Origin: an uncultured delta proteobacterium
GTDB lineage: Bacteria > Desulfobacterota > Syntrophobacteria > Syntrophobacterales > Syntrophobacteraceae
Assembly (NCBI GenBank): GCA_963808625.1
Contig: CAWEHK010000043.1
Location: forward strand, 32,001 to 96,000
DNA length: 64,000 bases
Reading direction: 5' to 3'
This document shows, in pieces, positions 15,619 to 63,574 of this stretch (position 1 is its first letter; every line of letters starts with the position of its first letter). A program made the translations under genes and the position numbers. Below the pieces are notes generated by a model. It was not told where the DNA came from and did no database searches. It was given only the letters and a program-made list of their open reading frames with translations.

Positions 15619-16015
15619 ATTCCTGCTTGTCCCGAGGCAGCAAGTCCTTTAAGCTTGCTCGACCCTGATAAGCATCTCACCGCAGAGACGCAGAGGTCGC
15701 AGAGAAAACCATATCATGGAGCAAAATCTTGACAGAATTGCCGGAAATCAGAGGTTAACAGTGGAACTCCGCCAGCATACAAAACCCCTGCGGCGCGGGC
15801 ATTCCTGCCCGCGTACCCTGTGTTCCCCGCAATAACAAAAATAAGCCCTGGAGCATGCGGGTGTTACCCATCACCCATCACCCAGCACTCAGCACCCATC
15901 ACTCATCACCCATCACCCAGCACCCAGCACTCATCACCCAGCACTCATTACTCAGCACCCAGCACCCAGCACTCAGCACTTTTTTTATGCCCCATGATCC
16001 AACTGGAGAGAACCG

Positions 16016-23920: not shown

Positions 23921-24835
23921 ATGAAGGTCCTCTACTCTTCCGACACGCATGTGCATCCGGGTCACCTTCGCCGGTTCCTGCAAGCGGCGAGAGAACTCGC
24001 GCCGCAGCTCCTCATCATCGGGGGTGACATCATTCCGGACTGGAAAGGATCAATCGCCGCATCCATTGAACCTCATAAACTCTGGGTACGGGATGTATTG
24101 CTGCCCCGGCTCCGGGAATTCCGCATTGCCCACAGCGAGGCAAGGGTTCTTATCGACCTGGGAAATGACGACATTGCCGCTGCCAGGCCCCTGATGGAAG
24201 CGGCTGACGGCAGCGACCTCGACCTGCTCCACCTGCGCGTGACAAAGGTGAGCGAGAATTTGGCGGTCTTGGGCTACATGGCGGTGAATCCGACGCCCTT
24301 CTTGATCAAGGACGCGGAAAAACCCGACTGCCGGGACCACGACGGCCTTTCCGACCGGCGAGTCGCAAGAGCCGGCTACGTTACCCACTCGGGCGCAGCC
24401 CTGCCGCACGTTCTGGATCCTTCAGCCGGCACCATCGAGGACGATCTGGCGGCGCTTTCTTCGACCATGGAAGACCCCCGGTGGGGCGATTCCTCTTTCA
24501 TCTTTGTGTGTCACGCACCCCCGAAAGATACTGCCCTTGACACGATCCAGAGCGGGCTCCATGTCGGCAGCCTGGCGGTGAGGCGCTTTATCGAACGCTG
24601 GAGCGGCATCGGAAGACTGATCCTCTCTCTCCATGGGCACATCCACGAAGCGCCCTGGAAGAGCGGGCGGGCCTGGCAGGTTATCGGCGACGTCCCCTGC
24701 TTCAACGTCGGTCAGACCGCGAAAATGCTTCGCGCCTTGCTCGTGAACACGGAAGCCCTTCCCGACTCAGCGCGGCTGGTCACCGTCAGCCGTGATGGGC
24801 AAGTAACCGTTGGGGGCGAGGGGGAATGGCTGTGA
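23921..24835 (+). CDS. Metallophosphoesterase
   Basis: SDTH, GGD, GNDD, CHAPP, HVGS, HGHIHE. Confidence 0.85.
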   Translation: MKVLYSSDTHVHPGHLRRFLQAARELAPQLLIIGGDIIPDWKGSIAASIEPHKLWVRDVLLPRLREFRIAHSEARVLIDLGNDDIAAARPLMEAADGSDLDLLHLRVTKVSENLAVLGYMAVNPTPFLIKDAEKPDCRDHDGLSDRRVARAGYVTHSGAALPHVLDPSAGTIEDDLAALSSTMEDPRWGDSSFIFVCHAPPKDTALDTIQSGLHVGSLAVRRFIERWSGIGRLILSLHGHIHEAPWKSGRAWQVIGDVPCFNVGQTAKMLRALLVNTEALPDSARLVTVSRDGQVTVGGEGEWL

Positions 24836-24930
24836 GTCGTTGCCAGTCGGAACATGACTGCCCTAAAAGCTACCGGCCAGTATACAAGGCGGTGTGGGAA
24901 GAGAGTGACTGGCTGCCACTCGGAACATGA

Positions 24931-25070
24931 ATGCCCTGAAAGGGCTGTATAGAACAGCCCAGGGTCAGCAACCGCGCCACCCTGGGAGGAGAAAAGCCCA
25001 ATCCTTTTTGCCTTTACCCTGAAAGGGTTGGATGAATCGCAGTGCCGCTGTGTTCTATGCAACTCCTTCA
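24931..25070. repeat. Palindromic repeat family GCCCTGAAAGGG...GCCCAGGGTCAGC...CGCCACCCTGG...CCCTTCAGGG
   Basis: Copies at ~25390-25610, ~29955-30108, ~55256-55471 and ~63729-63830. Confidence 0.85.
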
Positions 25071-25748
25071 GGCTAGTACACGTGGGCCGAAATAAGCCAG
25101 TTCCGGTGGGCACGGTGAAGCTGTGCCCACCCTACAGTGTTCCCGGATCCGTAGGGTGGGCAGGTTTTTTTGCCCACCGCAAACATGCACGAACTTATGC
25201 CCATGTGCACTAGATGTTCGTGTTGCACTCGAATGGTCACCGTCAGCCCTGATGCGCAAATCACCGTTGTGGATGCAGGGGGAATGGCTGTGAGTCGTTG
25301 CCAGTCGGAACATGACTGCCATGAAAGCTACCGGCCAGTATACAAGGCGGTGTGGGAAGAGAGTGACTGGCTGCCAATCGGAACATGAATGCCCTGAAAG
25401 GGCTGCATAGAATAGCCCAGGGTCAGCAAACGCGCCACCCTGGGAGGAGAAAAGCCCAATCCCTTTTGCCTTTACCCTGAAAGGGTTGGATAAATCGCGG
25501 CACCGGTTTGGTTTATGCAACCCCTTCAGGGTAAATGTCTTTGTTGTACCTGGCTTCCCAGGGTGGCGCTATCGCTGACCCTGGGCTGACTTATCGAGCC
25601 CCTTCAGGGCAAAGAAATCAGGTTGATACATTTGGGGTGGTGTTTGAAGGCAGGCTGGAAAGCCTGCCCCACATCCTGGCTGCGGCGGACAACGGGCTCC
25701 GACAGGAACCGGGAAACGCCCTCTATGACCGTGCGTCGCACACTCCTC

Positions 25749-25815
25749 GCGTCGCTGGAGTCGTGATCAGGCCGCCTGCTAACGCGACGGCGGCCTGATC
25801 ACGACCCAGCGACGC
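25749..25815. other. GC-rich hairpin downstream of paralog A (near-identical copy at 30247-30313)
   Basis: Perfect 17-bp stem GTCGTGATCAGGCCGCC/GGCGGCCTGATCACGAC, extended by GCGTCGCTGG/CCAGCGACGC. Confidence 0.85.
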
Positions 25816-25884
25816 TCGATACAAGCATCCGGGACTGGCGGAAGCGCCTGCGCCAAGAGCCGGAACTGCCAAGGGTACAAGGGC

Positions 25885-28800
25885 TCAAGGGCCAAGGGCA
25901 ACATCCCTGGAGAGGCGAAAGCCCAAGTTGTTGTCGCGGACGTCGGGCAAGTTGCCGTAGCGAATCGCCGACCGGCAGGACTGCGCAACGTTGAACCAGC
26001 TGCCGCCGCGGACCACCCGATGGGAGCCCCGCGGGTCATCAACCCAGGGGCGCCCATCGTCGGGCGCACCGTTGTAGCTGCTGTGCGAATCATCCTCGGT
26101 CCATTCCCAAACATTGCCGTGCATGTCGTACAGCCCAAAACGGTTGGGCTCCTTCTCCCCGACGGCATGGGTCTGGTCGCCGGAATTCGCCTCATACCAG
26201 GCCGCCCTTTTCAGATCGTCCTCCGTGTCACCAGTATAATATCGAGTGGTCGTCCCGGCCCGGCAGGCAAACTCCCACTCGGCCTCGCTCGGCAACCGCA
26301 AACCGGCCCACTCCGCATAGCCTTGAGCATCCTCCCAACTCACACCCACCACCGGCTGCCGGGGCTGGTTGAAACGCCGGTCAGCCCAGTACCCCGGTTC
26401 GACTATCCTCTGGTTTTCCTTCAAAAACTGCGCGTACTGTTCGTTGGTCACCGGGTAGCGGCCCATGTAGAAATTCGGCACTCGCACCTCGTGACGCGGC
26501 CCTTCGTCATCCCAACGGCCCTCTTCCGTTTCGAGCGACCCCATCATGAAGACGCCCCCGGGAATCCTCACCAATTCGTAGCCGCCCCCCTCAGCGAAGA
26601 CCACATCCTGCTGCGCCTGCCTGCTGCGCTCGGCAAGCCAGTTGCGGATGTCCGCCGATGGGTGCTGCACAAGGCCTGGGCGTAGCCTTCAACCGCCCCG
26701 ACATCCAGGCGTTCCAACACCTGTAGCGCCAGGAGTTGCCGCCGCCATAGGTCCGGGTCGTTCCCGTCGACCGCTTTCAGCAGTTCGACAAAGGGCTCGG
26801 GACTCTTCCCTGCGGCATCGTCAAGACACATCTCGACCAGGTGTGAGAACTCGGCAAACGCCGGCTGACGGAGCACTTCGCGCATGTATGGCGTGAACAG
26901 GAGAATCTTTCTCGATCGCCAGCAAGAGCAGCCCCACTTCCTGCCACCAGGAATCCCCAAAGTGGCTGGCTAAGTCGCACAACGCGTGTTGGTCACCTTC
27001 GAAGGCACGGCGATGGATCTCCCTGGCCGCCAGATACTCCTGAAATCCCAGGTGCATGAAGCCGTATTGCTCGTGGTCCCAGCCGGTCAGCAGACCACTT
27101 TCATCCCGAATGGTGCGCAGAAATGCGTCGCACTGAGTCCGCTCCGCTTCCTCCGAGACAGCCAGGAGACCAACTTACGGATGCCGCTCAGGGACTTCTC
27201 TGTGCTGCCCCAGGACCATTTCGTCTCTTTCAAAGCCGGCTCGATATGGGGCGCCAGTTCAGCCGCCTTCGCTCGGGTTCGCCCCTCCTCGCTGTGGAGC
27301 CACAGGGCCGTCGGCTGCAGCACGCGCCGCCCGGCTTCGGCGCTGACGCTGACCGGTAAGCGCTTGTTTTCCGCCACCGCTCCAGCAACACCTCGATGCA
27401 TTCCTCATACAGCTGTGCGCGCTTGTGAGGCAAACCTCCCTGGTGGCGGTGCACCAGACAGATATTGGTCAGCAGCAAGGGATTGCGCGTCAACTCGAAC
27501 ACCCGACGGGCGCGAAATTCCGGTTCCCGCAATTTCTCTATGAGGTTGTCAGCCTTTTCCCTGGCGATCCCTTCAGCCTGCTCAGGATCTTTTCCCAGCT
27601 CTTTTTCGACGATTCGATACCAGTTGGTAACAAATCGCTCCATCTGGTCGCCGCTCAAAGGGCGAATGTGCATCTCGAGAAAATCTTCGCTCAACCGCAC
27701 GCTGGGGCTATAGCCTGCAAAGCGGCTGGTTACAACAAACAGGCAGGTGGGGTGAGACTTCAGGGCATCACCGATCCATCTCGCCACCCGTTCCCGCAGA
27801 GGAAGGTCCGCCACTTCATCCAGACCATCCAGTAAAAACAGCAGATTCCCACGGTTGAGCAGACGATCTCCAAACCCGCGCCGGGTTTGGAGATGGGGAC
27901 TGTCCAACTGGCTCTGGATGAAAGCCTCCAGCCCGTGGTCAAGGTCGCGCAGGTCCCGAAGGGGCAAGAATACCGGCAATATGTCCGCAGGCAGGGACGT
28001 GTTCTTACGCCCTCCTGGCAGGCACCAGAGCAACAAGCGTTTCAGGTGCGTGGTCTTTCCGGACCCTGGGTCACCGAGGATGACCACTCCCCTTCTGCAG
28101 CGCATTTCTAACTGGCGAAAGGCTTCCGGCAGAGAAATCTCGATGGCCGCATCACACTCCCGCAGGGCTTTTTCAGCATGGTCCGCATCGGCGAAACATT
28201 TATCCGCCACCGGTCTGAGGTCCACCATGGCACGCAGAGGAATGTAGATGTCTTCAATGTCGATGGACACTCTAAGCTCAGTGACGAAACCGGTCACCGG
28301 CAATTTGGCATGGACGGCACCCGCCTTCAAACAATAACGGCGGATCTCTTCTTCAAGCGGCTCACCATCTCCCTCGCGGTCAGCGCGCCAATCCTGCAAT
28401 GCCTTGAGCACCTTGGCCCCAAGGTTCGTCTCGGTGAACCGGGCCGGCATTTGATCCAGAGACAGGCGAGCTTTGAAGGCAGCAAGCTTGTCCTGTTTGA
28501 TCCACTTTTCGGGTCCTGGGTCACAGTCTTTTTCAGAATCGAACACCGTGGATTGCGGCACAAACATCAATCGTTCTCTGGCGGCATCGTACTCCATCTC
28601 GGTGATGGACGTGTCGCTGTCCTCCGGTATCCAGCCGTAGCACCAGGCGATGATCCCGACCAGCACGTCCGCCTCGCGGGCGTAGCGCAGGCATTCGTCG
28701 ACCGTCGGGCGGGTGGTGGCGGTAAAGATTTCCATGCCATGCCAAACCATGTCGGCCATCGTGATGGCCTCCTCGACCACTTTGCGCCTTTCGACATTGT

Positions 28801-28885
28801 CCAGGTAGGTGCTCGATACGAAGACTTTATACCGGCGAGGAAAACTCAACGGGGCTTTCTCTGCTGATTCCTTGGTAATTGGCAT
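25885..28885 (-). CDS. DUF4062 + NACHT + FGE-sulfatase (CLec-fold) protein, paralog A (several frameshifts)
   Basis: KVFVSSTY...GMEIF...SITEMEYDAA (DUF4062). ILGDPGSGKTT, LLDGLDEV, VTSR, NPLLL, HLGFQEYLAA (NACHT). YPVTNEQY, RLPSEAEWE, GLYDMHGNVWEW, RGGSW, GFRL (FGE). Confidence 0.85.
25915..26007 (-). repeat. Putative DGR variable repeat in paralog A
   Basis: Differs from 30413-30505 at 20 of 93 nt, all at codon positions 1 or 2. Confidence 0.75.
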
Positions 28886-29152
28886 AGGATCCTCTGAAGT
28901 AATCCACCAAGTCACACGAACACCTTTTTCATCCACTAATGAACACGAAGACACACCAGGAAGAGAACGGCATAACCAACTCGTACGCATTCATCTTTCT
29001 TCGTGTCTCTTCGTGTCCTTCGTGGCAAAGAAAGTCCTATACTATGAGAGCGAGGACCGTCAAAACATTTCTGGAATAACGACTCGGATCGAGGGGAGGC
29101 CGGGCGGCGATGTTCGAAGAGGCGTGGGCGTAGGTTGGGTTTCGTTCTTCGA

Positions 29153-29626
29153 TCAATCACAGCGTTGTAAACCGCAATCATGGCAGGGAACGAAACCCAA
29201 CCTACGAGGTTCGCCGTATTTGGCGGCTTTTCCTTCCCCGATGCCTTCTATGCCGCTGAGCGCCGATCGAGTCGCGGCCTTCAGTCGAATCATTTTGGCA
29301 AGGTGCTTGTTGGTGGCAATCAGGTAAGGGGGAATCCCCTCCATTTTGGCCCTCGCGGCACGCCACTCTTTGAGGGCGTCGAAAGCCTGCCTTTCTACGT
29401 CGTCCAGTTCGAGGCGGGGATCAGGGCCGCGGCTCGGCCGGCGCTTTCATCGTCCGTCTGCGAGCGGTAGGCAAGAACCACCGTGAGGTAGGGAGTGCGG
29501 TCGTGAACAAAGAAGTGCTGCGAGAACTCGATCGACTTCCTTGTCAGCAAGAAACTCCTGAAGCGGCTCGTCACTGAAACCACCGGCATTTTCGGAGAAA
29601 CGAAAGGTGAAGAGTTTCAGCTTCAA
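29153..29626 (-). pseudogene. HRDC-domain protein of the DGR-accessory type, frameshifted and C-terminally truncated
   Basis: AGGAGG then TTG at 29626. Joined frames read MKLKLFTFRFSENAGGFSDEPLQEFLADKEV/IEFSQHFFVHDRTPYLTVVLAYR.../PDPRLELDDVERQAFDALKEWRAARAKMEGIPPYLIATNKHLAKM...LSGIEGIGEGKAAKYGE, then run into a palindromic repeat at ~29207. Confidence 0.75.
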
Positions 29627-30382
29627 ATCACCGCCCTCCTATCGATAACCCATTCGTTGGCCTGCTCTCATGATGGGCAACCCTGGACACTCAAGCAGGT
29701 GAACCCGCAAGTCTTCTCATAGGGGTTCCGAAATGGCAAAAAAATGCGCTTTCACGGTTATCCCTGCCAACTGTTTCATGTTGGCAAAAAGTCCGGGATC
29801 GTCATTCCCGCATGCTCCAGGCGGGAATCCAGGCGCGTTTTCTCCTCTGGGCTCCCGCCAAAACTGGTCCCGGCAAGCTTTGGGCGGTCAACCCGCAGGG
29901 GTGACGGCCGGAGGACCTTTTGAAACACACCCTTATCCGGGGATGGTAAACGCCAATCCCCCTTTTCCCTTACCCTGAAAGGGTCAGATACATCGTTGTG
30001 GCGGGATGTTTTATGTAACCCCTTCAGGGTAAATGTCCGTATTGTGCCTGGCTTCCCAGGGTGGCGCTATCGCTGACCCTGGGCTAATTTATGCAGCCCC
30101 TTCAGGGCAGGAAAGGTACCTTGATGCGTGTGGGGTGGTGTTGTGACCGCAGGCTGGAAAGCCTGCGCCACCAATTGGCTGCTGCGGGACAATGCGCCCA
30201 CAACAAGTTGGAAGCGCCTGCCATGGTCATGCATCGCACACACCTCGCGTCGCTGGAGTCGTGATCAGGCCGCCTGCTGACGCGACGGCGGCCTGATCAC
30301 GACCCAGCGACGCTCGCTGCGAGCATCCGGGACTGGCGGGAACGCCAGCGCCAAAAGCCAAAACTGCCAAGGGTACAAGGGC

Positions 30383-33300
30383 TCAAGGGCCAAGAGCAAC
30401 ATCCCTGGAGAGGCGAAAGCCCAGGTCGACGTTGCGGCCGCCGGGCGGGGCGCCGCCGCGAATCGCCGACCGGCAGTTCTGCGCACCGTCGTGCCAGCCG
30501 CCGCCGCGGACCACCCGGTAGGAGCCCCGCGGGTCATCGATCCATGAACGGCCATCGTTGGGCGCACCGTTGTAACTGTCATGCCAATCATCCTCAGTCC
30601 ATTCCCAAACATTGCCGTGCATGTCGTACAGGCCAAAACTGTTCGGCTCCTTTTCACCGACCGGATGAGTCTGCTCGCCGGAATTCGCCTGATACCAGCC
30701 AACCCGAGCCAAATCCTCCTCCGTGTCACCTGAATAAAACCTGGTAGTCGTCCCCGCGCGGCAAGCATACTCCCACTCGGCCTCGCTCGGCAACCGCAAA
30801 CCGGCCCACTCCGCATAGCGTCGAGCCTCCTCCCAGCTCACCCCCACCACCGGCTGCCGGGGCTGGTTGAATCGCCGTTCAGCCCAGGATTCCGGTTCCC
30901 TGACCTCCTGGTTTTCCTTTAAGAATTGCGCGTACTGTTCGTTGGTCACCGGGTAGCGGCCCATATAGAAATCCGGAACGCGCACCTCGTGGAGCGGCTC
31001 TTCCCAATCCAAATGCTCTTCTTCCGATTCCGCTGAGCCCATCCCAAAGACGCCCCCAGGAATTCGCACCAGCTCGTACCCACCCCGCTCAGCGAAGACC
31101 ACATCCTTCTGTGCCTGTCTGCCGCGCTCGGCAAGCCAGTTGCGAATGTCGGGCGAAGGGTGCTGCGCAAGCAGTGGCCGAAGTTTTTCAGCGGCCTCGG
31201 TGTCCAGCCGATCAAGGACCTGCAGCGCCGCAAGCTGCCTTTGCCAAAGGCCCTTCTCGCTGTCGGCGGCAGGGCTGGATGCGGACTCGAACCGCTCACC
31301 TGAAAACAGCCGCCGCCAAAAGCCCATGTTGCTGCGGGGGGCAGTTTCGAGCAATTCGACAAAGGGCTCGCTTGAAGTCTCGGCAGCATCGACCAGGCAC
31401 ATTTCCACGAGGTTGGGAAATTTGGCGAATGCCGGCAGTCTGACCACCTCGCGCATGTATGGCGTGAACAGTGATGGCTCATCGAGCGCCAGCAGCAACA
31501 GCGCAACCTCCTGCCACCAGGATTCCCCGAAGTGGCTTGCCAGGTCGCGCAATACCTGCCGGTCGCCTTCGAAAGCGCGGCGGCGGATCTCCCGCGCCGC
31601 CAAATACTCCTGAAACCCCAGGTGCATGAATCCGTAATGCTCCTGGTCCCAGCCGGTCAGGAGGCCGCTTTCGTCCCGGATGGTGTGGAGGAAATCCTCA
31701 GCGCTGCCCCCCTTCCAGTTGACGGCTTTCAGAGCTGGATCAATGGCGGGCGCCAGTTCGGCAGCCTTGGCCCGGGTCCGCCCCTCTTCCCCGTGCAGCC
31801 AGAGGGCCGCCGGCTGCAGCACCCGCCGCCCCGTCTGAGCGCCAACCCCAACGGGCAGGCCCTTGGCTTTCCGCCAGTGTTCGAGCATGACGTCAATGCA
31901 TTCCTCGTAGAGTCGGGCGCGTCCTTCGGGGAGCTCGCGCCGGTGGCGGTGCACCAGGCAGATGTTGGTCAAAAGCAGCGGGTTGCGCGTCAATTCAAAC
32001 ACCTCGGGTGCGCGAAAATCGGGTTCCCGCAGTCTCTTCACCAGCCTTTCGGCCTTTTCCCGGGCAATGACCTCCGCCTGTTCAAGATCTTTGGCCAGCC
32101 CTTTTTCGACGATGCGATACCAGTTGTGGACGAAACGTTCCACCTGGCTCGGCATCCAGCGGCCGAATGTGCATCTCGAGGAAGTCCTCGCTCAACCGCA
32201 CACTGGGGCTGTAGCCGGCAAAGCGGCTGGTCACGACGAACCGGCAGGAAGGGTGGGACTTGCACGGCATCGCCGATCCACGCCGCGACCGCCTCCCGCT
32301 GCGAGAGATCGGCCACTTCGTCCAGGCCGTCGAGCAGGAACAGCAGGTTCCCGCGGTCCAGGAGGCGTTCACCAAACCCTTTCGCCATGTTGAGATGGGG
32401 GCTGTGCAACTGATCGTGGATGAACGCCTCCAGCCCATGGTCAAGGTCGCGCAATTCCCGCAGAGGCAGGAATATCGGCAGCATGTTCGCGGGCAGACCG
32501 ATGGTCTCGGGTCCCTTGCGCAGACACCAGAGGAGCAGGCGTTTGAGGTGAGTGGTCTTGCCCGAGCCGGGGTCCCCGAGGATGACGACCCCTTTTCTAT
32601 CCCGCGCTTCCGATTCGCGAAAGGCTTCGGGCAGAGAAATCTCGAGCGAGCGCCCGCTGCAATCCCGCAGGACTTTTTCAGCGTGGGCCGCATCAGCGAA
32701 GCAGTCCTCGCCCACGCCCCGCAGATCCACCATGGCGCGCAGAGGGAATGTAGATGTCTGCGATGTCGATGGGGACCTTGAGCTGCGTGACAAATCCGGC
32801 CACCGGGAGATTGGCGTGGAAGGCATCCGCCTTCTCGCGATATTTGCGGATTTCTTCCGCAAGATCCTGACCGGCCATGAGGATACGTTCATCCACCGGA
32901 GGTTCAGACAAAACCGCTTTCGAGGTCCCTCCCGGCGTTCTCGCCAGTCGAGCAAAGCGTGAAGGACCTTCATGCCCAGCGTCTTCTCATCGAATGGAAC
33001 ACACGTCTGATCTTGGGAAATCCTTTTCAGAAAGGCTTTTAGCTTGTTTTGCTTATCAGACCTCTCAGGTTCAGGATCAAACTCCCTTTCCACAATGACC
33101 GGCAGGTCGCGATCCAGGACAAACATGAGCCTTTCGGTGGCGGCGTCATACTCCATCTCGGTGATGGACTTCTCGCTGTTCTCCGGTATCCAGCCATAGC
33201 GCCAGGCGATGATCCCCACCAGGACATCGGCCTCTCGGGCATAGCGTAGACATTCCTCAACCGTGGGGTGGGTACTGGCCGTAAAGATTTCCATTCCGTG

Positions 33301-33444
33301 CCAGACCATCCCGGCGGTCGTGATGGCATCCTGGACAATTTTGCGCCTATCCATGTTGTCCCGGTAGGTGCTCGAAACGAAGACCTTGTATGCGCGGGTA
33401 GCTTTCCCAGCGGCTTTCTCAGCAGGTCCTTTGACAGTCGGCAT
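30383..33444 (-). CDS. DUF4062 + NACHT + FGE-sulfatase (CLec-fold) protein, paralog B (frameshifts)
   Basis: Same motif set as paralog A (KVFVSSTY, GDPGSGKTT, LLDGLDEV, NPLLL, RLPSEAEWEYAC, GNVWEW, GFRLSRDVALGP). Confidence 0.85.
30413..30505 (-). repeat. Putative DGR variable repeat in paralog B
   Basis: Counterpart of 25915-26007. Invariant third codon positions and NNC codons at most variable sites. Confidence 0.75.
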
Positions 33445-36737: not shown

Positions 36738-37329
36738 GACTGCAACGAGGCTTCCGCAGGAAGCCTTCACTTGTGGGGCAGGCTTTCCAGCCTGATTTTT
36801 GGCCGGTTGGGCATGACAGGCTGGAAAGCCTGCCCCACACGGCTTGGACCTTTATCAAAATACCGTTGTAGTGCTGAGTGCAGCACAGCAGAATAGAGTG
36901 ACCATTGCCCAAAGGCGTCATTCCGGCAGGTTATAGGCCGGAATCCACAAAAGCTTGCTGGATACCGGCTTAAGGCATGCCGGTAGGACGAAGGGAAATT
37001 CGGACACTTATTTTTGCGACGCTGTACTAAGCAATTGTCGAAAATGAAAGTGGTTAAGGTTAAGAACCTGCTTTCTGCAGGAGCGGCGCTTTGCGGCGAC
37101 CTTGATAAAGTCGCGCCGAAGAGGCGCTCCTACCGAAAGGTGACGGCCCTGGCAAGGTGAAAGCTCTCTACCTTAATCGTTATGATAACTGACCACTGAT
37201 CCCTGGCCACTGACCACTAACCACTAACCACTGACAACTGATAACTGATCACTGGCCACTAACCACTAACCACTGACAACTGACCACTGATCACTGACCA
37301 CTGACCACTTCTTACAACCTGGATTGACC

Positions 37330-44858: not shown

Positions 44859-45009
44859 GTTGTTGGCTTTTAGCTTTTGGCTTTTGGTTCTTGGATTTGG
44901 ATGGCACAAACGCTCGCCCGCACTCAAGCCGCGAGTCACTACCACCACCCATCACTCATCACTCATCACTCGGCACCCAGCACTCTCACTCAGCACTCTC
45001 ACTCATCAC

Positions 45010-46088
45010 TCAGCACCCAGCACTTCTCCCCCGATACAAACAAAGCGGCTCTTCCGCAAGGTAGTCGCCCGTGCTTTCATAAGCCCTGGCGCGGCAGCCG
45101 CCGCACACCTTCACATACTCGCACCCGCCGCACTTGCCCTCGATAGTTGCCAAAATCCCTCAGGTCCTTGAAGATGGCGCGAATTGTCCCAGATTTCGCG
45201 GAAGGATTGTTCGCGGATATTGCCGCAGTTCAGCTCCAGGTAGCCGCAGGGCTGCACCTGTCCGACGTGGGAGATGAAGGCAAAGCCGACTCCTCCCAGG
45301 CAGCCGCGGGTCATGGCATCGAGGCCGAAGGTCTTGAAGCTGACCTCGCGCCCCTCTGATTTGGCGCGCTGCCGCAGGATGCGGTAGTAGTGGGGGGCGC
45401 AGGTGGCCTTCAACTGCAGCGGCGCCCGGTCTCTCTGTTCGTAGAACCAGTGCAGCGTTTGTTCATACTGTTCGGCATCGATGCCCTGTTCCGCCAGGTC
45501 TTTGCCGCGGCCCATGGGAACGAGCAGGAAAATGTGGTGGGCCACGGCGCCGAGCGAAACCGCCAGTTCCTGAACGGCGGAGAGCTCATGGAGGTTTTGC
45601 CGGGTGATGGTGGTGTTGATCTGGAAATCCAGGCCCGCCTCCCTGGCGCACTGCACGCCGCGAAGCGCTCCCTCGAAGGCCCCCGGCACCCGGCGGAAGG
45701 CATCGTGCGAGGCGGCGGTGGCGCCATCCAGGCTGATGCTGATCCGCTGAATTCCCGCTTCCTGCATCTTTCGGACGTTCTCACCGGTGAGCAGGGTCCC
45801 GTTCACGGCCATGGTCATGCGGAAGCCCTTCGCGGTCCCGTAGGCGGCAATGTCGAAGATATCCGGGCGCAGGAGGGGCTCGCCGCCGGTCAGGATGACG
45901 ATCGGGCTGGCAAAGGTTTGGATGTCGTCCAGGAGCTTGAAGCATTCCGCCGTCGTCAGCTCATTCTCATAAGGGCGGTCCAGCGCCGCGGCGCGGCAAT
46001 GGATGCAGGCCAGGTTGCAGGTGCGCGTCACTTCCCATGCCACCAGGCGCAAATTCGCACCAGTTCCGCTTTTATGCTCTCTTTCCAT
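45010..46088 (-). CDS. ahbD: Heme b synthase, radical SAM (frameshifted near 3' end)
   Basis: [41 protein letters not shown] tail [17 protein letters not shown] in a shifted frame. Confidence 0.9.
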
Positions 46089-57554: not shown

Positions 57555-60500
57555 TCAGAGTTCAGAGGTGGAGGGAGGGGACGCCACCACCCGAAACCCG
57601 ATATTCCTGAGCCTGAGGTCCGGGAGGTTCCCGCCGCGGGCCGCACAGCGCACAAAGTCCGCATTGATGCCGAACGCGCCGCCGCGCAACACACGGCGAA
57701 CCTCCCTCGAAGCATCCAGGTTCTCCCTCCCGTCCCTTGCATCGTAAGGATACTTAAACTCCGGCGTCTCCCAGTCCTTACCCCACAAACTCCGGGTCCA
57801 CTCCCACACGTTGCCGCTCATATCCTCCACCCCATAGGGGCTGGCACCTTTAGGAAAACATCCCACCGCACTGGTGGAACCGATTCCCGTATCATCATAG
57901 TTCGCCCGGTCACGATCAAGCTCTTGTCCCCAGGGGTAGGTGCGACCGTCCGTTCCCCGCGCCGCCTTCTCCCATTCCGCTTCGCTGGGGAGGCGAACTT
58001 CCCAGGCGTCACCCAGTCTCTTCGCCCTTCGGAGCTCCTCGGTCAACCACCTGGTAAAGGCCAGGGCCTCATACCAGGTGATGCCAACCACCGGGTGGTT
58101 AGACAGGCTGAATGGTTCCCCATAATCTTCCGGGTGCATCCGTGACTGAATCATGCCATTTTTCCACACCCCTTCCCTCTTGGCCTCACGCCAGTATTCC
58201 TCGATCCGGTACCCGTCCGCATCCACAAAAGCCTGGAATTGACCGTTGGTCACGGGATATCGGGAAATCTTGTAAGCATAGGGGATATCGAATTCATATC
58301 CCTTGTCGTCTCCCATGGTGAATGGACCGGCGGGCACCTCGCACCAGGCAATGTCGGGCAGCCCATCGGCACCAAGTCCCACGCCAAGGCGGAAGTCCCC
58401 AAACCGTGCCAAGGTGTTCGCCACATCCGAGCGCTCGACCGCCACCAGCGCGCCTGTTCCCACGAGGCCCGCAAGCCATTCTTTCACCCTCTCCAATAAG
58501 GGAGCATGGCGTGCTACGGCCTGGACGTCTTTCAGGCCGATCTCCAGCAGCGCTTCCCCGGCAAGGTGCGCCAGGCGGCAGTCGATCTCGGCAATGGCAC
58601 CGCCCGCAATGGCGTGCGGGCAAAGCGCCGCGGCCACCTCCACCGCCAGGTGGGTGACGCGTTTGAGGCGAGCCATCACCCCCACCGCCCAGAGCGTCAC
58701 CTGGCGCCACTGGGTATAGTTCTCGCGGGCCAAAGCGGCGGTAGCGTCCGGAAAGTCGGGCTGCACCGCCAGGTAACAGCCGGCCAGATACTCCTGGTAG
58801 CTGCGATGCGGAAAGGTGTAGACGCCCTTGCCGCGATCGATCAGCAGGCCGGCGCGGTGCTGGATGTCGGTAACAAGAAGCTTGGCGCGGTCCCAACTGC
58901 CCTCCAGGTAGTCCTTGAACACCCTCAGCAGCGTGGCCTCGTCGATATCGGCAGGACCCTGGGCACCCTTCTGCGCCAGGTGAACCTCGAAGGCCACCTG
59001 CTCCAACGCCGCTTCCAGCTTTTCCGAGCTCACCATCCGGTTGATGCTCGCCTCCGGCCCCAATCGGGCTTCCTGCCAGCGGACAAGCAACAGGCTGACC
59101 ATCTGCTCGTAAAGCTTGACGCGATCATCGGGCAGCCGGCCCCAGGAGAAGTGGAGGGAGGCCATCATGGCCAACTGGAGCGGATTTTCAGCCAGGGGCG
59201 CCAGGTCCGGTCGGCGCGACAGCCTCCCGTAGGCGCCGGGCCTCTTCCGCGGCTTCCGCCTCGCTCTTCCAGCCCAGGCGGCATACCTCCCCATACCAGC
59301 AATCGATGAACGCCGCGATCTGTTTTTGGTCGAAGGGCGCCAGCGTGTGCTCTTTGAAACGATCCAGTTGGCAGCACGCGTCCTGGTACGCGTACCCCCG
59401 ACAGGTCACGAGGTAGCGGTTTTCGGGGTGGTTGAAGGTGGCGGTGAAATCGGCCACCGCGTCACGGACGATCTGCCGCTGCGCGGGGTCGGCCACTTCG
59501 TCCAGGCCGTCCAGAAGGACCAGGACGCCGCCCTTCAGCAACTGTTGACGGAGGCCGGGTGCAAAGTCCGCCAGCTCCTGGCTGGCCAGGGTTTCGACGA
59601 TGAAATCCCAGAGGCCGGTGGCGGAGCCTCTGCAACGCTCGCTCTTGGCAAACTGGCGGAGCACCACCTGCACCGGCAGCAGCGGGCCGTGGGTCCACGC
59701 CGGCTGCAAGCGGTCCAACCAGCCGTCGCCAGGAAGCCATCCGGGCTCGCCCGCCTCCTCCAGCCGGGCGCCGGCCAGGCACAAGGCCAGGTGGTTGGCA
59801 AAAGTGGATTTGCCGCTTCCAGGGTCGCCCAGAATCACCAGGTAAGGCTCACGGGCCGCGGCCTCGAGCGCGGGAAGCAGCCGGCTCTCGCGTTCTTCCC
59901 GGATCATGGCCTCCGACGGGCGCGGTGAAATTTCGCCTTCGGCTTCCAGTTTTTCACCGGCCACTTGGGTGCGCGTGTTGAGCGCGACGTAGATTTTGAG
60001 CAGGTCCAGGGTCTGTTGGCGAACACGTTCCACGGCACGGGGGTCGATCACTGCCAGAGGCAAAGCGTTGGCCGTCGCCTGGAGGCGGCGCAGGTAATTC
60101 GCTTCCAAACGGGCCAATTCGATCTCTGAGACGGCGGGTTGGAGAGCCACCGGGGGACGGCCTTTCCTCGCCGGTTTGCCGCCGGGCAATGGGAGCGGGA
60201 AGCGGAACTCCCCCTTGTCCACGTTGCGGTACGTCAGCGTGTCTCGGGCCCAAAAACCACCCTGGTGGTCGCTGTAAGTCCGCAGGATGACGACGCCCTC
60301 ACCAGCCTCCAGATCGAGCCTCACCCAGTTGTATCCGTTCGGATAGTCGGCGGCTCTCATAGCCGGCGCCGGCGGCGATGATCATGGCCCCGGCATCGGG
60401 TGTTTTCAGGCTGAGCAGCCCGGTGCGGTGCAAGTGTCCGTGCAGGATGAAGCGACAACTGCCCATCAGGAGCGCTTCGCACTCTTCCCGGTCAAACTCG

Positions 60501-61163
60501 CACAGCCAGTCGAAAGGATGATGCAGCAGAGTGATACTCAGATCGGCACCTTGGGCGCAGAGCGATCGCCTGCCTTACCTGGCGCTCGCCAATTACCAGG
60601 CGGCCTCGATCCTCGTCTCCTCCCCGGGCCAGCCAGGCCGAGCTCAGCGCCAGGACAGCAAGCCGCCGGCCGGCGACGTCGAACGATTGTACCACGAAGG
60701 GAGCTTCATCCGTGAACGACCGGTCCGGGCTGAAATAGTCGTTTACAAACCGTGCATACGCGTCAAGGCGCTGAAAGAGCACGCGTCGGTCCGTATCGGC
60801 CGCCAGCACTTCGGCAACCGCCTCCCGGCTGTCCAGCGCCGACGCAATAGCCGATGCGCCCCTGGTGATGGCGGCCCGGTCCACGTCGTGGTTGCCCGGT
60901 GCAACGAACAGGCGGGTCCTGGGCACGGCGGTGACCTGCAACAACTCATCGAAGAACTGCCTCGCGAGCTCGTACTCCTCAGCTTTGCCGCTGAAAGCAA
61001 TGTCCCCGGTGATCGCGATGAAGTCGGGGCGCAAGTGGTCTTCCGTAATCCGGGTCTCCACATCGTCCACCAGTTTGCGCAGCACGATGTCACGATCCCA
61101 GGTGTGCCCCTCGCCGGCACGGAAGTGGAGGTCGGAGAGGTGAAGCCAGGTTATTGTGGACAT
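57555..61163 (-). CDS. DGR target: calcineurin-like phosphoesterase + NACHT + FGE-sulfatase (CLec-fold) protein (frameshifts near 60540, 60360 and 59230)
   Basis: LHLSDLHF, TGDIA, PGNHD (phosphoesterase). ILGDPGSGKST, LLDGLDEV, VTCR, NPLQL, FPHRSYQEYLAG (NACHT). [54 protein letters not shown] (FGE). Confidence 0.88.
57579..57702 (-). repeat. DGR variable repeat (VR)
   Basis: Ungapped 124-nt match to 62684-62807. The 19 mismatches all lie opposite TR adenines. Confidence 0.97.
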
Positions 61164-61236
61164 GCGAGAGCCTCCGTATCAGGTTAACGTCGATTTGTGC
61201 GCTCACAGGAGGGCGGGTTTTCCAACCCGCCGAACT

Positions 61237-62487
61237 TTACATGCAAATTCCTATACGATCGAGTAAGACCTCTGCTACGAAAAGTTCTTTTATAGGTCTT
61301 CGGGTGTGCTGAGGCGACACGAACGACTGCGGATAAGCTCTCAAAGGTGACCTCACGCGAAGGCGCGAAGACGCAAAGCGAAGCAAGAAACCTTCTTTCG
61401 GCTCTTTTTGCTTCGCAACAGATTTACCGCTCGACTCACCGCTACCCCTCCTCCTGCTCAATGGTACACTCAGTACCGCCTTCCGCAATCCCACGGTATT
61501 CCCGTAGCGGGCATGATTGACCCAGCCCTTGACGCTTTCGGTAACACGCTCCAGGGGTAATTCTCCAGCCTTAAATGACGCGATGAGTCGCTTCAGCCTC
61601 CGCCGGTAGAACATCCCTTTCCTGCGCTTCAAACGACGCCGGTCAGGGTACACCAGAAAGCCCAGGAAGGGAAAACCTTCGTCTACCGGTCGCGGATGAG
61701 CACCTTGATGAATCGTTACACGCAAACGAGCCAGCCTGGCTTCTGCGCCCTGCTTCCAATCCCAGAGCGTCGGCTTGTCGTCGGCAAAAAGAAGGAAATC
61801 GTCCACGTAACGCACGTAGGCCTTGCACCGCAGTTCTCGCTTCACAAAGTGGTCGAACGGGTTGAGATAGCAATTCGCCCAGAACTGGCTGGTGAGGTTC
61901 CCGATGGGCAAGCCTCGTGGTCGGTTTATGGCCATGAGATCATCGCCGGCGAAATAGACCATGTCATAGTGTTCGCTCAGCACCCCGATGCCGCTTTCCA
62001 AAATGAGGCCGATCAGCCAGAGCACGTCCCTATCAGTGAGCTTTCGAGCAAGAATGGTCCGGAGGATCGCATGATCGATACTCGGAAAGAACTGGCGGAC
62101 ATCACCCTGGAGGACATACCGATATTGACGCGCCAGTTTCTGTGCCCGGTTGAGGGCCCGATGCGTGCCTTTGCCCACCCGGTTTGCGTAGGAGTCGGCG
62201 ATAAAGGTGCGCTCAAAGACCGGTTCGATGAGGTTGCACAGGGCATGATGGACCACCCGGTCCCGGAACGGCGCCGCCGAAATCAGGCGGCGTTTGGGCT
62301 CATGGATCGTGAAACTGGTGTAGGGGCCGGGCCGGTAGACCTTCGAGCTCAGCTCCTCGCGCAGCTCCAGGAGATTGTCTTCGAGGCGATATTCAAAGGC
62401 TGCCACATTGGGGTGCCCGCGCTTCCCGGTGGCTGCCCGCCGAAACGCAAGGAGCAGATTCTCAAATGAACAGAGCTCATCGAACAT
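61237..62487 (-). CDS. DGR reverse transcriptase
   Basis: EPKRRLISAAPFRDRVVHHA, GKGTHRA, DVRQFFPSIDH, GLPIGNLTSQ (DGR-type SQ), YVRYVDDF, FLGF. Confidence 0.96.
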   Translation of the reverse strand: MFDELCSFENLLLAFRRAATGKRGHPNVAAFEYRLEDNLLELREELSSKVYRPGPYTSFTIHEPKRRLISAAPFRDRVVHHALCNLIEPVFERTFIADSYANRVGKGTHRALNRAQKLARQYRYVLQGDVRQFFPSIDHAILRTILARKLTDRDVLWLIGLILESGIGVLSEHYDMVYFAGDDLMAINRPRGLPIGNLTSQFWANCYLNPFDHFVKRELRCKAYVRYVDDFLLFADDKPTLWDWKQGAEARLARLRVTIHQGAHPRPVDEGFPFLGFLVYPDRRRLKRRKGMFYRRRLKRLIASFKAGELPLERVTESVKGWVNHARYGNTVGLRKAVLSVPLSRRRGSGESSGKSVAKQKEPKEGFLLRFASSRLRVRSPLRAYPQSFVSPQHTRRPIKELFVAEVLLDRIGICM

Positions 62488-62683
62488 GGCAAGCCATCTC
62501 AAAAAAAGATGATCCTGCACCAGGGTCAGGGGACCAAGGGTGCAGGATCGTTGTTATTCGCCCGGCCCGGTCTGACCCGAGCGCGGCCGGGAACAGACTC
62601 CGCTATTTTTCGCCTCGGCCCGAAAGGGAGGAAGCCCCGTCGGGCAATCCCGGCAGGAACGCCGTTCCCGCTGCGAAAATTGT

Positions 62684-62807
62684 GGACGCCACCACCCGAA
62701 ACCCGATATTCCTGTTCCTGTTGTTCGGGTTGTTCCTGTTGCGGGCCGCACAGCGCACATTGTTCGCATTGTTGTTGAACGCGCCGCCGCGCAACACACG
62801 GCGTTTC
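62684..62807 (-). ncRNA. DGR template repeat (TR)
   Basis: AAC/AAT-rich copy of the VR (translates [40 protein letters not shown]). Lies between avd and RT. A 9-bp-stem hairpin sits just 5' at 62826-62847. Confidence 0.96.
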
Positions 62808-63220
62808 CGAGTCTGTCCCCGCAACACCGGGGCCCGCAGGCCCCGGTAATTGCCCTGTTTCTAAGTGCAGCGCCGCACAAACAACGTGTCACTAACCAGT
62901 TGATGCACAGAACGTCGGGTTTCAAGCTTCCTCATCGAATCACGGCATTGTGAACCGCAATCATGGTGAGGAACGAAACCCAACCTACGAGACTGACAAC
63001 TCGGACACTTTATTGTGCAGCGGTGAACTAGTCCAACAACGGTACATTGGTGAAACTCCAATCCGTGTGGCGAAAGGCTTTCCAGCCTGCCATGCCGAAG
63101 CGGCCAAAAGGCAGGCTGGAAAGCCTGCCCCACAGATTAAGGCCCCGAAGCGGAAACGCTCGTTTCTGAGAGCGTACTAAGTTTGGTTCCAGGCAGATGA
63201 CGTAGGCAAAATGACGCCGG

Positions 63221-63574
63221 TCACCTCGGTTGTCGGGTCACTTTCTGCCAGCCGCCCAGTAACCGGCCGATTTCATTTGCCATGACCGCAACGTGTTCGT
63301 ATTGCCCCAGAGAGAGCCAGCCCCATCGTGCGGCCAGCCGCAGATACATGCGCATTTTTGCCAGGGCCTCATCGGCCAGGAGCAACTGCTCGATGCGGGC
63401 ATTGGCCTTCCGCAGGTTGGCTTCTTCCAGTCGTTCGCGCAGGTCGAAAGCCGCATCCAGCAGGCGCCGGGTGAACGTATGCCGGTGGGCTTTCGGAAAA
63501 TGATTCGTCGCGGGAAGCAGCCAGGTCAGCAGGTCGAAGGTGCGGGTAAAAATGGGCATTTCCTGTTGGCTCAT
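63221..63574 (-). CDS. avd: DGR accessory variability determinant Avd
   Basis: 117-aa four-helix-bundle type: PIFTRTFDLLTWL...FPKAHRH...EIGRLLGGW. Upstream of TR and RT. Confidence 0.93.
   Translation of the reverse strand: MSQQEMPIFTRTFDLLTWLLPATNHFPKAHRHTFTRRLLDAAFDLRERLEEANLRKANARIEQLLLADEALAKMRMYLRLAARWGWLSLGQYEHVAVMANEIGRLLGGWQKVTRQPR

Follow-up and report, generated by a model that had tools for sequence, protein, structure and literature searches.

Two DUF4062-NACHT-FGE genes of a Syntrophobacteraceae genome as very probable flanking targets of a DGR whose core was deleted between them

The window, the whole stretch of 64,000 nucleotides of an uncultured delta proteobacterium that was analysed here, carries on its minus strand two related genes that the initial annotation had described as DUF4062-NACHT-FGE paralogs (Table 1). 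For gene 1 all three domains are recognized by Pfam (PF13271, E = 5e-18; PF05729, E = 5e-17; PF03781, E = 2e-63), and the product has the effector-NACHT-sensor architecture of an NLR-like (STAND) sensor, with frames taken as assembled; for gene 2 the description holds by Pfam for FGE only, DUF4062 and NACHT being assigned from its translation and because its DNA is 72-80% identical to that of gene 1. The frame switches of each gene, four in number, were mapped against a homologue in another genome, G007 (L159:4407-7487; here G-numbers denote genomes and L-numbers loci), which is read in a single frame (1027 codons, interrupted by one in-frame TAA), shares the tail of the variable region (VR) described below, and is 71.5% identical to gene 2 over 558 amino acids. 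Since rpoB and rpoC are equally broken, each being split into five pieces in the assembly (a background of about one indel per kb), the frameshifts of the window genes are probably assembly errors; a pseudogene reading was rejected as the default on the same grounds. Gene frames, and the junction described below, are given as assembled, from an assembly 84.6% complete. The in-frame stop of the G007 homologue, which is an orphan, possibly represents decay after DGR loss, so that orphaned targets may decay.

Table 1. Features of the two target genes and of the segment between them (positions in the window)
Feature	Position	Strand	Evidence
Target gene 1, DUF4062-NACHT-FGE/CLec, ~1000 codons, 4 frame switches in assembly	25885..28885	-	Pfam; frame map against the G007 homologue
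Target gene 2, DUF4062-NACHT-FGE/CLec, 4 frame switches in assembly	30383..33444	-	PF03781 (E = 2e-62), translation, homology
Variable region 1 (VR1), including invariant 3' end (IMH)	25907..26028	-	G063 template homology stops at 25907
Variable region 2 (VR2), including IMH	30405..30526	-	Comparison of VR copies
CCCTTG hexamers (four) across the stop codon, beyond template homology	25868..25898	-	Genome-wide motif count
CCCTTG hexamer repeats behind VR2	30366..30396	-	Genome-wide motif count
Long hairpin with conserved apex behind VR1; candidate target-recognition cruciform	25749..25815	-	DNA fold
Hairpin behind VR2	30247..30313	-	z = -9.1, 0/200 shuffles
HRDC (DGR accessory gene), ending at the palindrome within its last helix	29210..29626	-	G063 HRDC homology, Pfam
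78-bp REP/MITE-like palindrome at the deletion junction	29129..29206	.	11 loci in genome
Probable remnant of the template-RNA spacer 3' end (3' arm of terminal hairpin)	29087..29128	-	blastn to relatives' spacer ends

Each VR sits at the 3' end of the C-type-lectin (CLec)/FGE domain (PF03781; match to TvpA, 2Y3C, E = 6e-28). At the other end of the protein, the DUF4062 of gene 1 matches KpSwz, whose structure is hit at E = 2.8e-6; the position substituted in KpSwz E97A aligns with E98 of gene 1 once the numbering offset is inferred, and the domain thus probably retains the NADase glutamate. DUF4062 is described as a TIR-like anti-phage NADase in a preprint (bioRxiv 10.64898/2026.05.01.722283). 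Somewhat more probably than not, the proteins act as NLR-like sensors in which binding of a ligand by the CLec tip would lead to NACHT oligomerisation, NAD+ depletion by DUF4062, and abortive infection.

Over the 93-nt segments 25915-26007 and 30413-30505, both on the minus strand, the two genes differ at 20 positions, in 14 of 31 codons, 13 of these being non-synonymous and one synonymous; by codon position the differences number 11, 9 and 0. Our recount agrees with that of the initial annotation, and the codon pairs quoted there are all present in VR1 and VR2. Its observation of synonymous drift upstream likewise holds, 31 of 55 differences over the preceding 129 codons falling at position 3 (14/10/31 at positions 1/2/3; Fisher p = 2.4e-6). 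The VR extends past both ends of the 93-nt segment, its 5' limits being 26028 and 30526 and its 3' limits 25907 and 30405, and the paralogues are also alike beyond the VR.

A DGR works through an RT that makes errors at adenines when copying TR RNA, and the VR is replaced by the resulting cDNA. The VR with its 3' end occurs six times in the 4.8-Mb source assembly (G000): in the window pair and at C43:143.9k, C50:60.9k, C30:8.6k and C37:140.7k, so that the proposal of two targets of a second DGR, although correct for both genes, falls short of the actual six. As read from translations, without a Pfam scan, the four remote carriers comprise one DUF4062-NACHT protein, two TIR-like proteins, and one effector-NTPase-transmembrane protein. 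Two of the six VRs bear insertions of 1-2 nt at variable sites; with these projected out before counting, 28 of 93 aligned columns are variable, 14 at codon position 1, 14 at position 2 and none at position 3, and the 65 invariant columns comprise 30 C, 25 G and 10 T, with no A. Third positions vary in 0 of 31 instances in the VR versus 14 of 18 columns in the upstream block (p = 4.5e-9), and the IMH is present in all six copies. This combination of an A-free invariant scaffold with variation confined to positions 1 and 2 is a DGR footprint, as had been proposed for both C-terminal segments, and it indicates that one template wrote all six VRs, recently. The base spectrum at the variable columns (A64 G56 T31 C17) agrees with the in-vitro misincorporation order of BPP-1, given in Handa 2020 as T>G>C in VR terms, only in that C is rarest, and was not taken as support.

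Four RT matches were found in the source genome, which from sequence and context represent a local DGR within the window (Avd-TR-RT), a DGR on C38 (HRDC-RT-TR), and two RTs of other kinds. At 27 invariant columns the local TR disagrees with every one of the six VRs, which upholds the earlier statement that it does not fit the two segments, and the C38 TR does so at 16; as controls, all mismatches between the local TR and its own VR inside the repeat (16/16), and all those between the template of a metagenome locus (L143) and its VR (24/24), lie at A. A cognate template was not found in the source genome by blastn, by a wildcard profile, or with the template of the related genome G063 as query, nor did the 4.8-Mb assembly (84.6% complete) contain a cognate RT or Avd, a second HRDC, or a TR of this type. 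VR2 has matches in 6 of 80 other genomes of the family, five of which share IMH and tail. In one of these relatives, G063, an HRDC-avd-RT-TR array immediately precedes a DUF4062-like NACHT-FGE target, whose IMH and tail are shared by two additional targets in other places. Of the 28 variable columns, 23 carry A in the G063 template and 27 in that of L143 (p = 6e-19); A at these columns is also found in unrelated templates of the class (local TR, 24/28; C38 TR, 18/28). Beyond the variable columns the L143 and G063 templates differ from the six-copy scaffold at 8 and 11 positions, respectively, and neither is cognate. The G063 VRs themselves show 4-6 non-A mismatches to their own TR, and two of them (L131, L132) share a non-A change, TTT versus TGG in the template (Trp to Phe).

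These comparisons bear on the template that the initial annotation had reconstructed. Counted by eye, the prediction equals the L143 template at 87 and the G063 template at 83 of 93 positions, both templates lying beside RT genes; in detail, two columns for which it has A or W are invariant in the six copies, as G and T. The same annotation anticipated a template whose differences from both VRs would all lie at A; none was found in the source assembly or in the relatives, whose templates keep the 8 and 11 differences noted. The proposal of a different, unseen template was right in that the template is not the local one; rather than residing elsewhere, it was most likely located between the two genes and has been deleted. 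A degenerate template pattern had no sites in viral contigs and three in metagenome contigs, namely the L143 template, a VR with the same tail (L144), and an unrelated VR-like gene end (L142). Among the 80 of 622 FGE relatives listed from a protein scan of genome contigs, none was of the cognate kind; L016, also in this list, carries another two-target DGR. In a phylum sample of 400 other genomes, five had matches, four of these being templates of other DGRs.

The segment between the two genes retains a truncated HRDC gene and no avd. The HRDC is 72% identical in DNA to that of G063 over 431 nt, with homology ending at 29211, and 55-59% identical in protein (59% at E = 2e-46); it covers positions 2-62 of 68 of the Pfam HRDC model, compared with 3-68 in G063, and an orthologue at E <= 1e-12 occurs in only two of the 80 other family genomes. 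The palindrome at which it breaks off has perfect 19-bp arms (fold z = -7.0). On the other side of the palindrome, the probable spacer remnant, a short stretch with matches of modest E-value, resembles the spacer end of G063 at 19 of 21 positions (E = 0.052) and that of G280 at 24 of 31 (E = 0.014), with no match in L143 or G433, that is, in two of the four DGR loci tested. The G063 21-mer of the spacer end has a single genome site at <=3 mismatches (0.012 expected at <=2), and as this 21-mer was picked after the blast search, the blast E-values and collinear position are the fair evidence. The distance from HRDC end to spacer end is 1.69 kb in G063 and 92 bp in the window, and, given the intact order HRDC-avd-RT-TR-target that G063 keeps, about 1.7 kb appears to be missing. 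A further genome, G097, has the layout target-HRDC-RT-TR-target, the same arrangement without avd. The simplest reading of the sequence, and the most likely, is an original order of target 2 - HRDC - [avd - RT - TR, deleted] - target 1. The palindrome may have caused the loss of the core; five Y1_Tnp matches were found in the genome. Queried with G063, four of the five family genomes bearing the VR tail (92-100% complete, fragmented, 4-7 candidates each) yielded no DGR-type RT, and core loss therefore seems common. A copy of the junction palindrome also lies at 62912-62989 in the window, where it separates avd from TR in the local DGR, whose core may consequently face the same kind of loss.

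Behind the VRs are two elements with no counterpart elsewhere in the genome: the hexamer run and the hairpin apex motif each have six matches in 4.8 Mb, and all six are behind these VRs. The VR1 hairpin folds at -38.9 kcal/mol (z = -9.4, 0/200 shuffles), and the stems vary in sequence among copies, yet fold. The apex lies 81-115 bp from the IMH in the source genome, and 78-86 bp past it in five of nine related VR loci, namely three of G063, that of G018, and L144. Of the remainder, L002 (in G007) breaks off within the motif, and L004, L007 and L099 are without it, as are three loci that belong to other DGRs. In DNA, GNA mini-hairpins have exceptional stability. The apex, GC-G(N)NA-GC, resembles the GRNA loop required in BPP-1 (Guo 2011, PMC3240598). 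Because the 3' module shares descent, the association of these elements with the VRs is partly explained by ancestry, and we regard hexamers and hairpin as candidate target tags. More speculatively, and rather doubtfully, hexamers and apex hairpin might act as a portable address tag guiding one DGR to dispersed TIR/DUF4062 sensors and keeping three DGRs orthogonal, while repeat-mediated excision of the core would repeatedly freeze the repertoire in part of the population. No description of this hairpin element was found in the DGR literature searched; the SI figures of Doré and Table S1 of Wu may include loci of this kind or comparable downstream elements.

We consider it very probable that the two genes served a cellular DGR as its flanking (cis) targets and that the core of this DGR was deleted between them. 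The locus would once have read target 2 - HRDC - avd - RT - TR - target 1; cDNA would have replaced the final ~120 nt of both genes and of the four remote genes, randomising the C-type-lectin pocket; and ~1.7 kb, comprising the HRDC end, avd, RT, TR and the greater part of the spacer, would then have been lost from the assembled chromosome, with a multicopy palindrome now at the junction. That the six scaffolds show no accumulated non-A change suggests a recent loss. It is hard to credit that the VRs were written by the local or the C38 DGR from earlier template states: both are present in the genome with RT and TR, but their templates depart from the six scaffolds at 27 and 16 fixed columns, their IMH and downstream elements differ, and each serves its own VR family. 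Positive selection with gene conversion among paralogues, operating without reverse transcription, we hold to be just as improbable. Sequence shared beyond the VR does imply that the 3' module was duplicated or converted at some point; conversion, however, would not give 28 hypervariable columns in an otherwise identical tract that is A-free over 65 fixed columns, nor would it account for an identical tract that stops where the G063 template stops, or for an HRDC remnant between the genes.

A more serious alternative, though still an unlikely one, is that the DGR is active, with an intact core in part of the population, or with a second copy in unassembled DNA that acts in trans on the six targets. 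Such an arrangement also fits the scar, and it would suit six scaffolds without any non-A difference, the insertions at variable sites in two of six VRs, such as mixed reads might give, an assembly completeness of just 84.6%, and the precedent of DGR 7 in the account of Doré 2024 (PMC10907252), where intact variants lie beside deleted ones. Against it, neither another HRDC nor another Avd, RT or TR of this type turned up in the 4.8 Mb assembled, the VR insertions fit the general indel rate, and the tail-bearing family genomes were, in four of five cases, without DGR-type RT at 92-100% completeness. Under the preferred reading of a deleted core, the loss of RT and TR leaves the six pockets frozen unless intact cells coexist.

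The inference of two independent diversifiers was correct in assuming more than one, and we now count three DGRs in the history of the genome: the local one, that on C38, and the deleted one. The local DGR (window 57555-63574, minus strand) comprises Avd (63221-63574), TR (about 62680-62803), RT (61237-62490), together with a target of metallophosphoesterase-NACHT-FGE architecture. Its other target is found shortly beyond the window edge (G000:C43:97.4k; 16 of 17 mismatches at A), and both targets carry, past the IMH, CTCTG-type repeats of their own that parallel the CCCTTG run. The DGR at G000:C38:16085-23132 has five candidate targets, including C12:43.6k, C37:68.5k and C33:94.6k, with a distinct shared downstream element; its TR-VR pairs have from 10/19 to 20/46 mismatches at A and many non-A, so that it looks older or its TR has drifted. 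The spacers of seven FGE-type DGRs (L131:3480-3560, L134, L136, L143, L016, L139, G000:C38:18.9k) seem to end in a GC-rich hairpin with, by eye, a recurring GTAG...CGAA-like internal loop; Rfam gave nothing at gathering score and 11 weak matches over seven loci, including five of these seven. A long RT-like gene at G000:C54:90523-94050, frameshifted in the assembly, has a C-terminal fusion domain, which we take to be nitrilase-like, and no TR nearby; it is probably a defence RT. A 518-aa RT at G000:C36:54796-56352 presumably has group II intron features. The window further contains heptamer tandem arrays (15852-15991, 37183-37329, 44926-45049), a 257-nt direct duplication with copies 458 bp apart (24819-25533), and several REP-like families.

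The general phenomenon, DGR-diversified NACHT-CLec sensors with repeats replacing RT or TR, is already published, and the surprise of the present case is modest. Doré 2024 (PMC10907252) reports targets of NACHT/nSTAND-FGE type, genomes with several DGR classes, targets in trans, and MITE-like repeats that replace RT or TR, with intact variants beside deleted ones. The clade-5 DGRs 3, 6 and 7 of Thiohalocapsa PB-PSB1 treated there have NACHT or nSTAND1 targets with a C-terminal FGE-type CLec, and the DGRs of that organism share with ours two targets per locus, several DGR classes, trans targets and repeat-degenerated loci; since the cognate RT is missing here, the likeness to clade 5 rests on targets and layout. 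The present locus departs from those described in that article in having one 78-bp palindrome that marks the joint loss of avd, RT and TR, and in having DUF4062 as effector (neither DUF4062 nor HRDC occurs in the main text). It resembles the remote-target DGRs of Treponema and cyanobacteria (Wu 2018, PMC5758913; Vallota-Eastman 2020, PMC7517822) in that one template serves dispersed CLec genes with differing N-termini, up to seven remote targets for one template in Treponema; those targets, however, are defined by their match to a resident template, whereas here the template is missing. Like the hairpin/cruciform of Bordetella BPP-1 (Guo 2011, PMC3240598), the candidate hairpin is a GC-rich inverted repeat past the VR with a free stem and a conserved G-N-N-A loop; the phage elements given there have stems of 7-10 bp at 4-34 bp from the VR, in contrast to stems of ~27-35 bp in five of six copies here, an apex 78-115 bp past the IMH, and hexamers between. 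Gene 1 shares with Swarozyc/KpSwz and TEP1 (bioRxiv 10.64898/2026.05.01.722283) the Pfam DUF4062 with a probable catalytic Glu, and with TEP1/NWD1 the order DUF4062-NACHT; in place of a portal-binding module or WD40, the sensor of this putative NADase is a DGR-varied CLec.

The scar accounts for where the machinery of an orphan DGR went. In the cellular-DGR literature consulted, remote-targeting signals are suggested rather than mapped, and G063, whose intact orthologous system shares IMH and tail with the window genes, offers a setting for studying such cis signals. With DUF4062 described as an anti-phage NADase, loss of NAD+ would provide a direct read-out for the hypothesis that DGR-varied CLec domains serve as antigen sensors.
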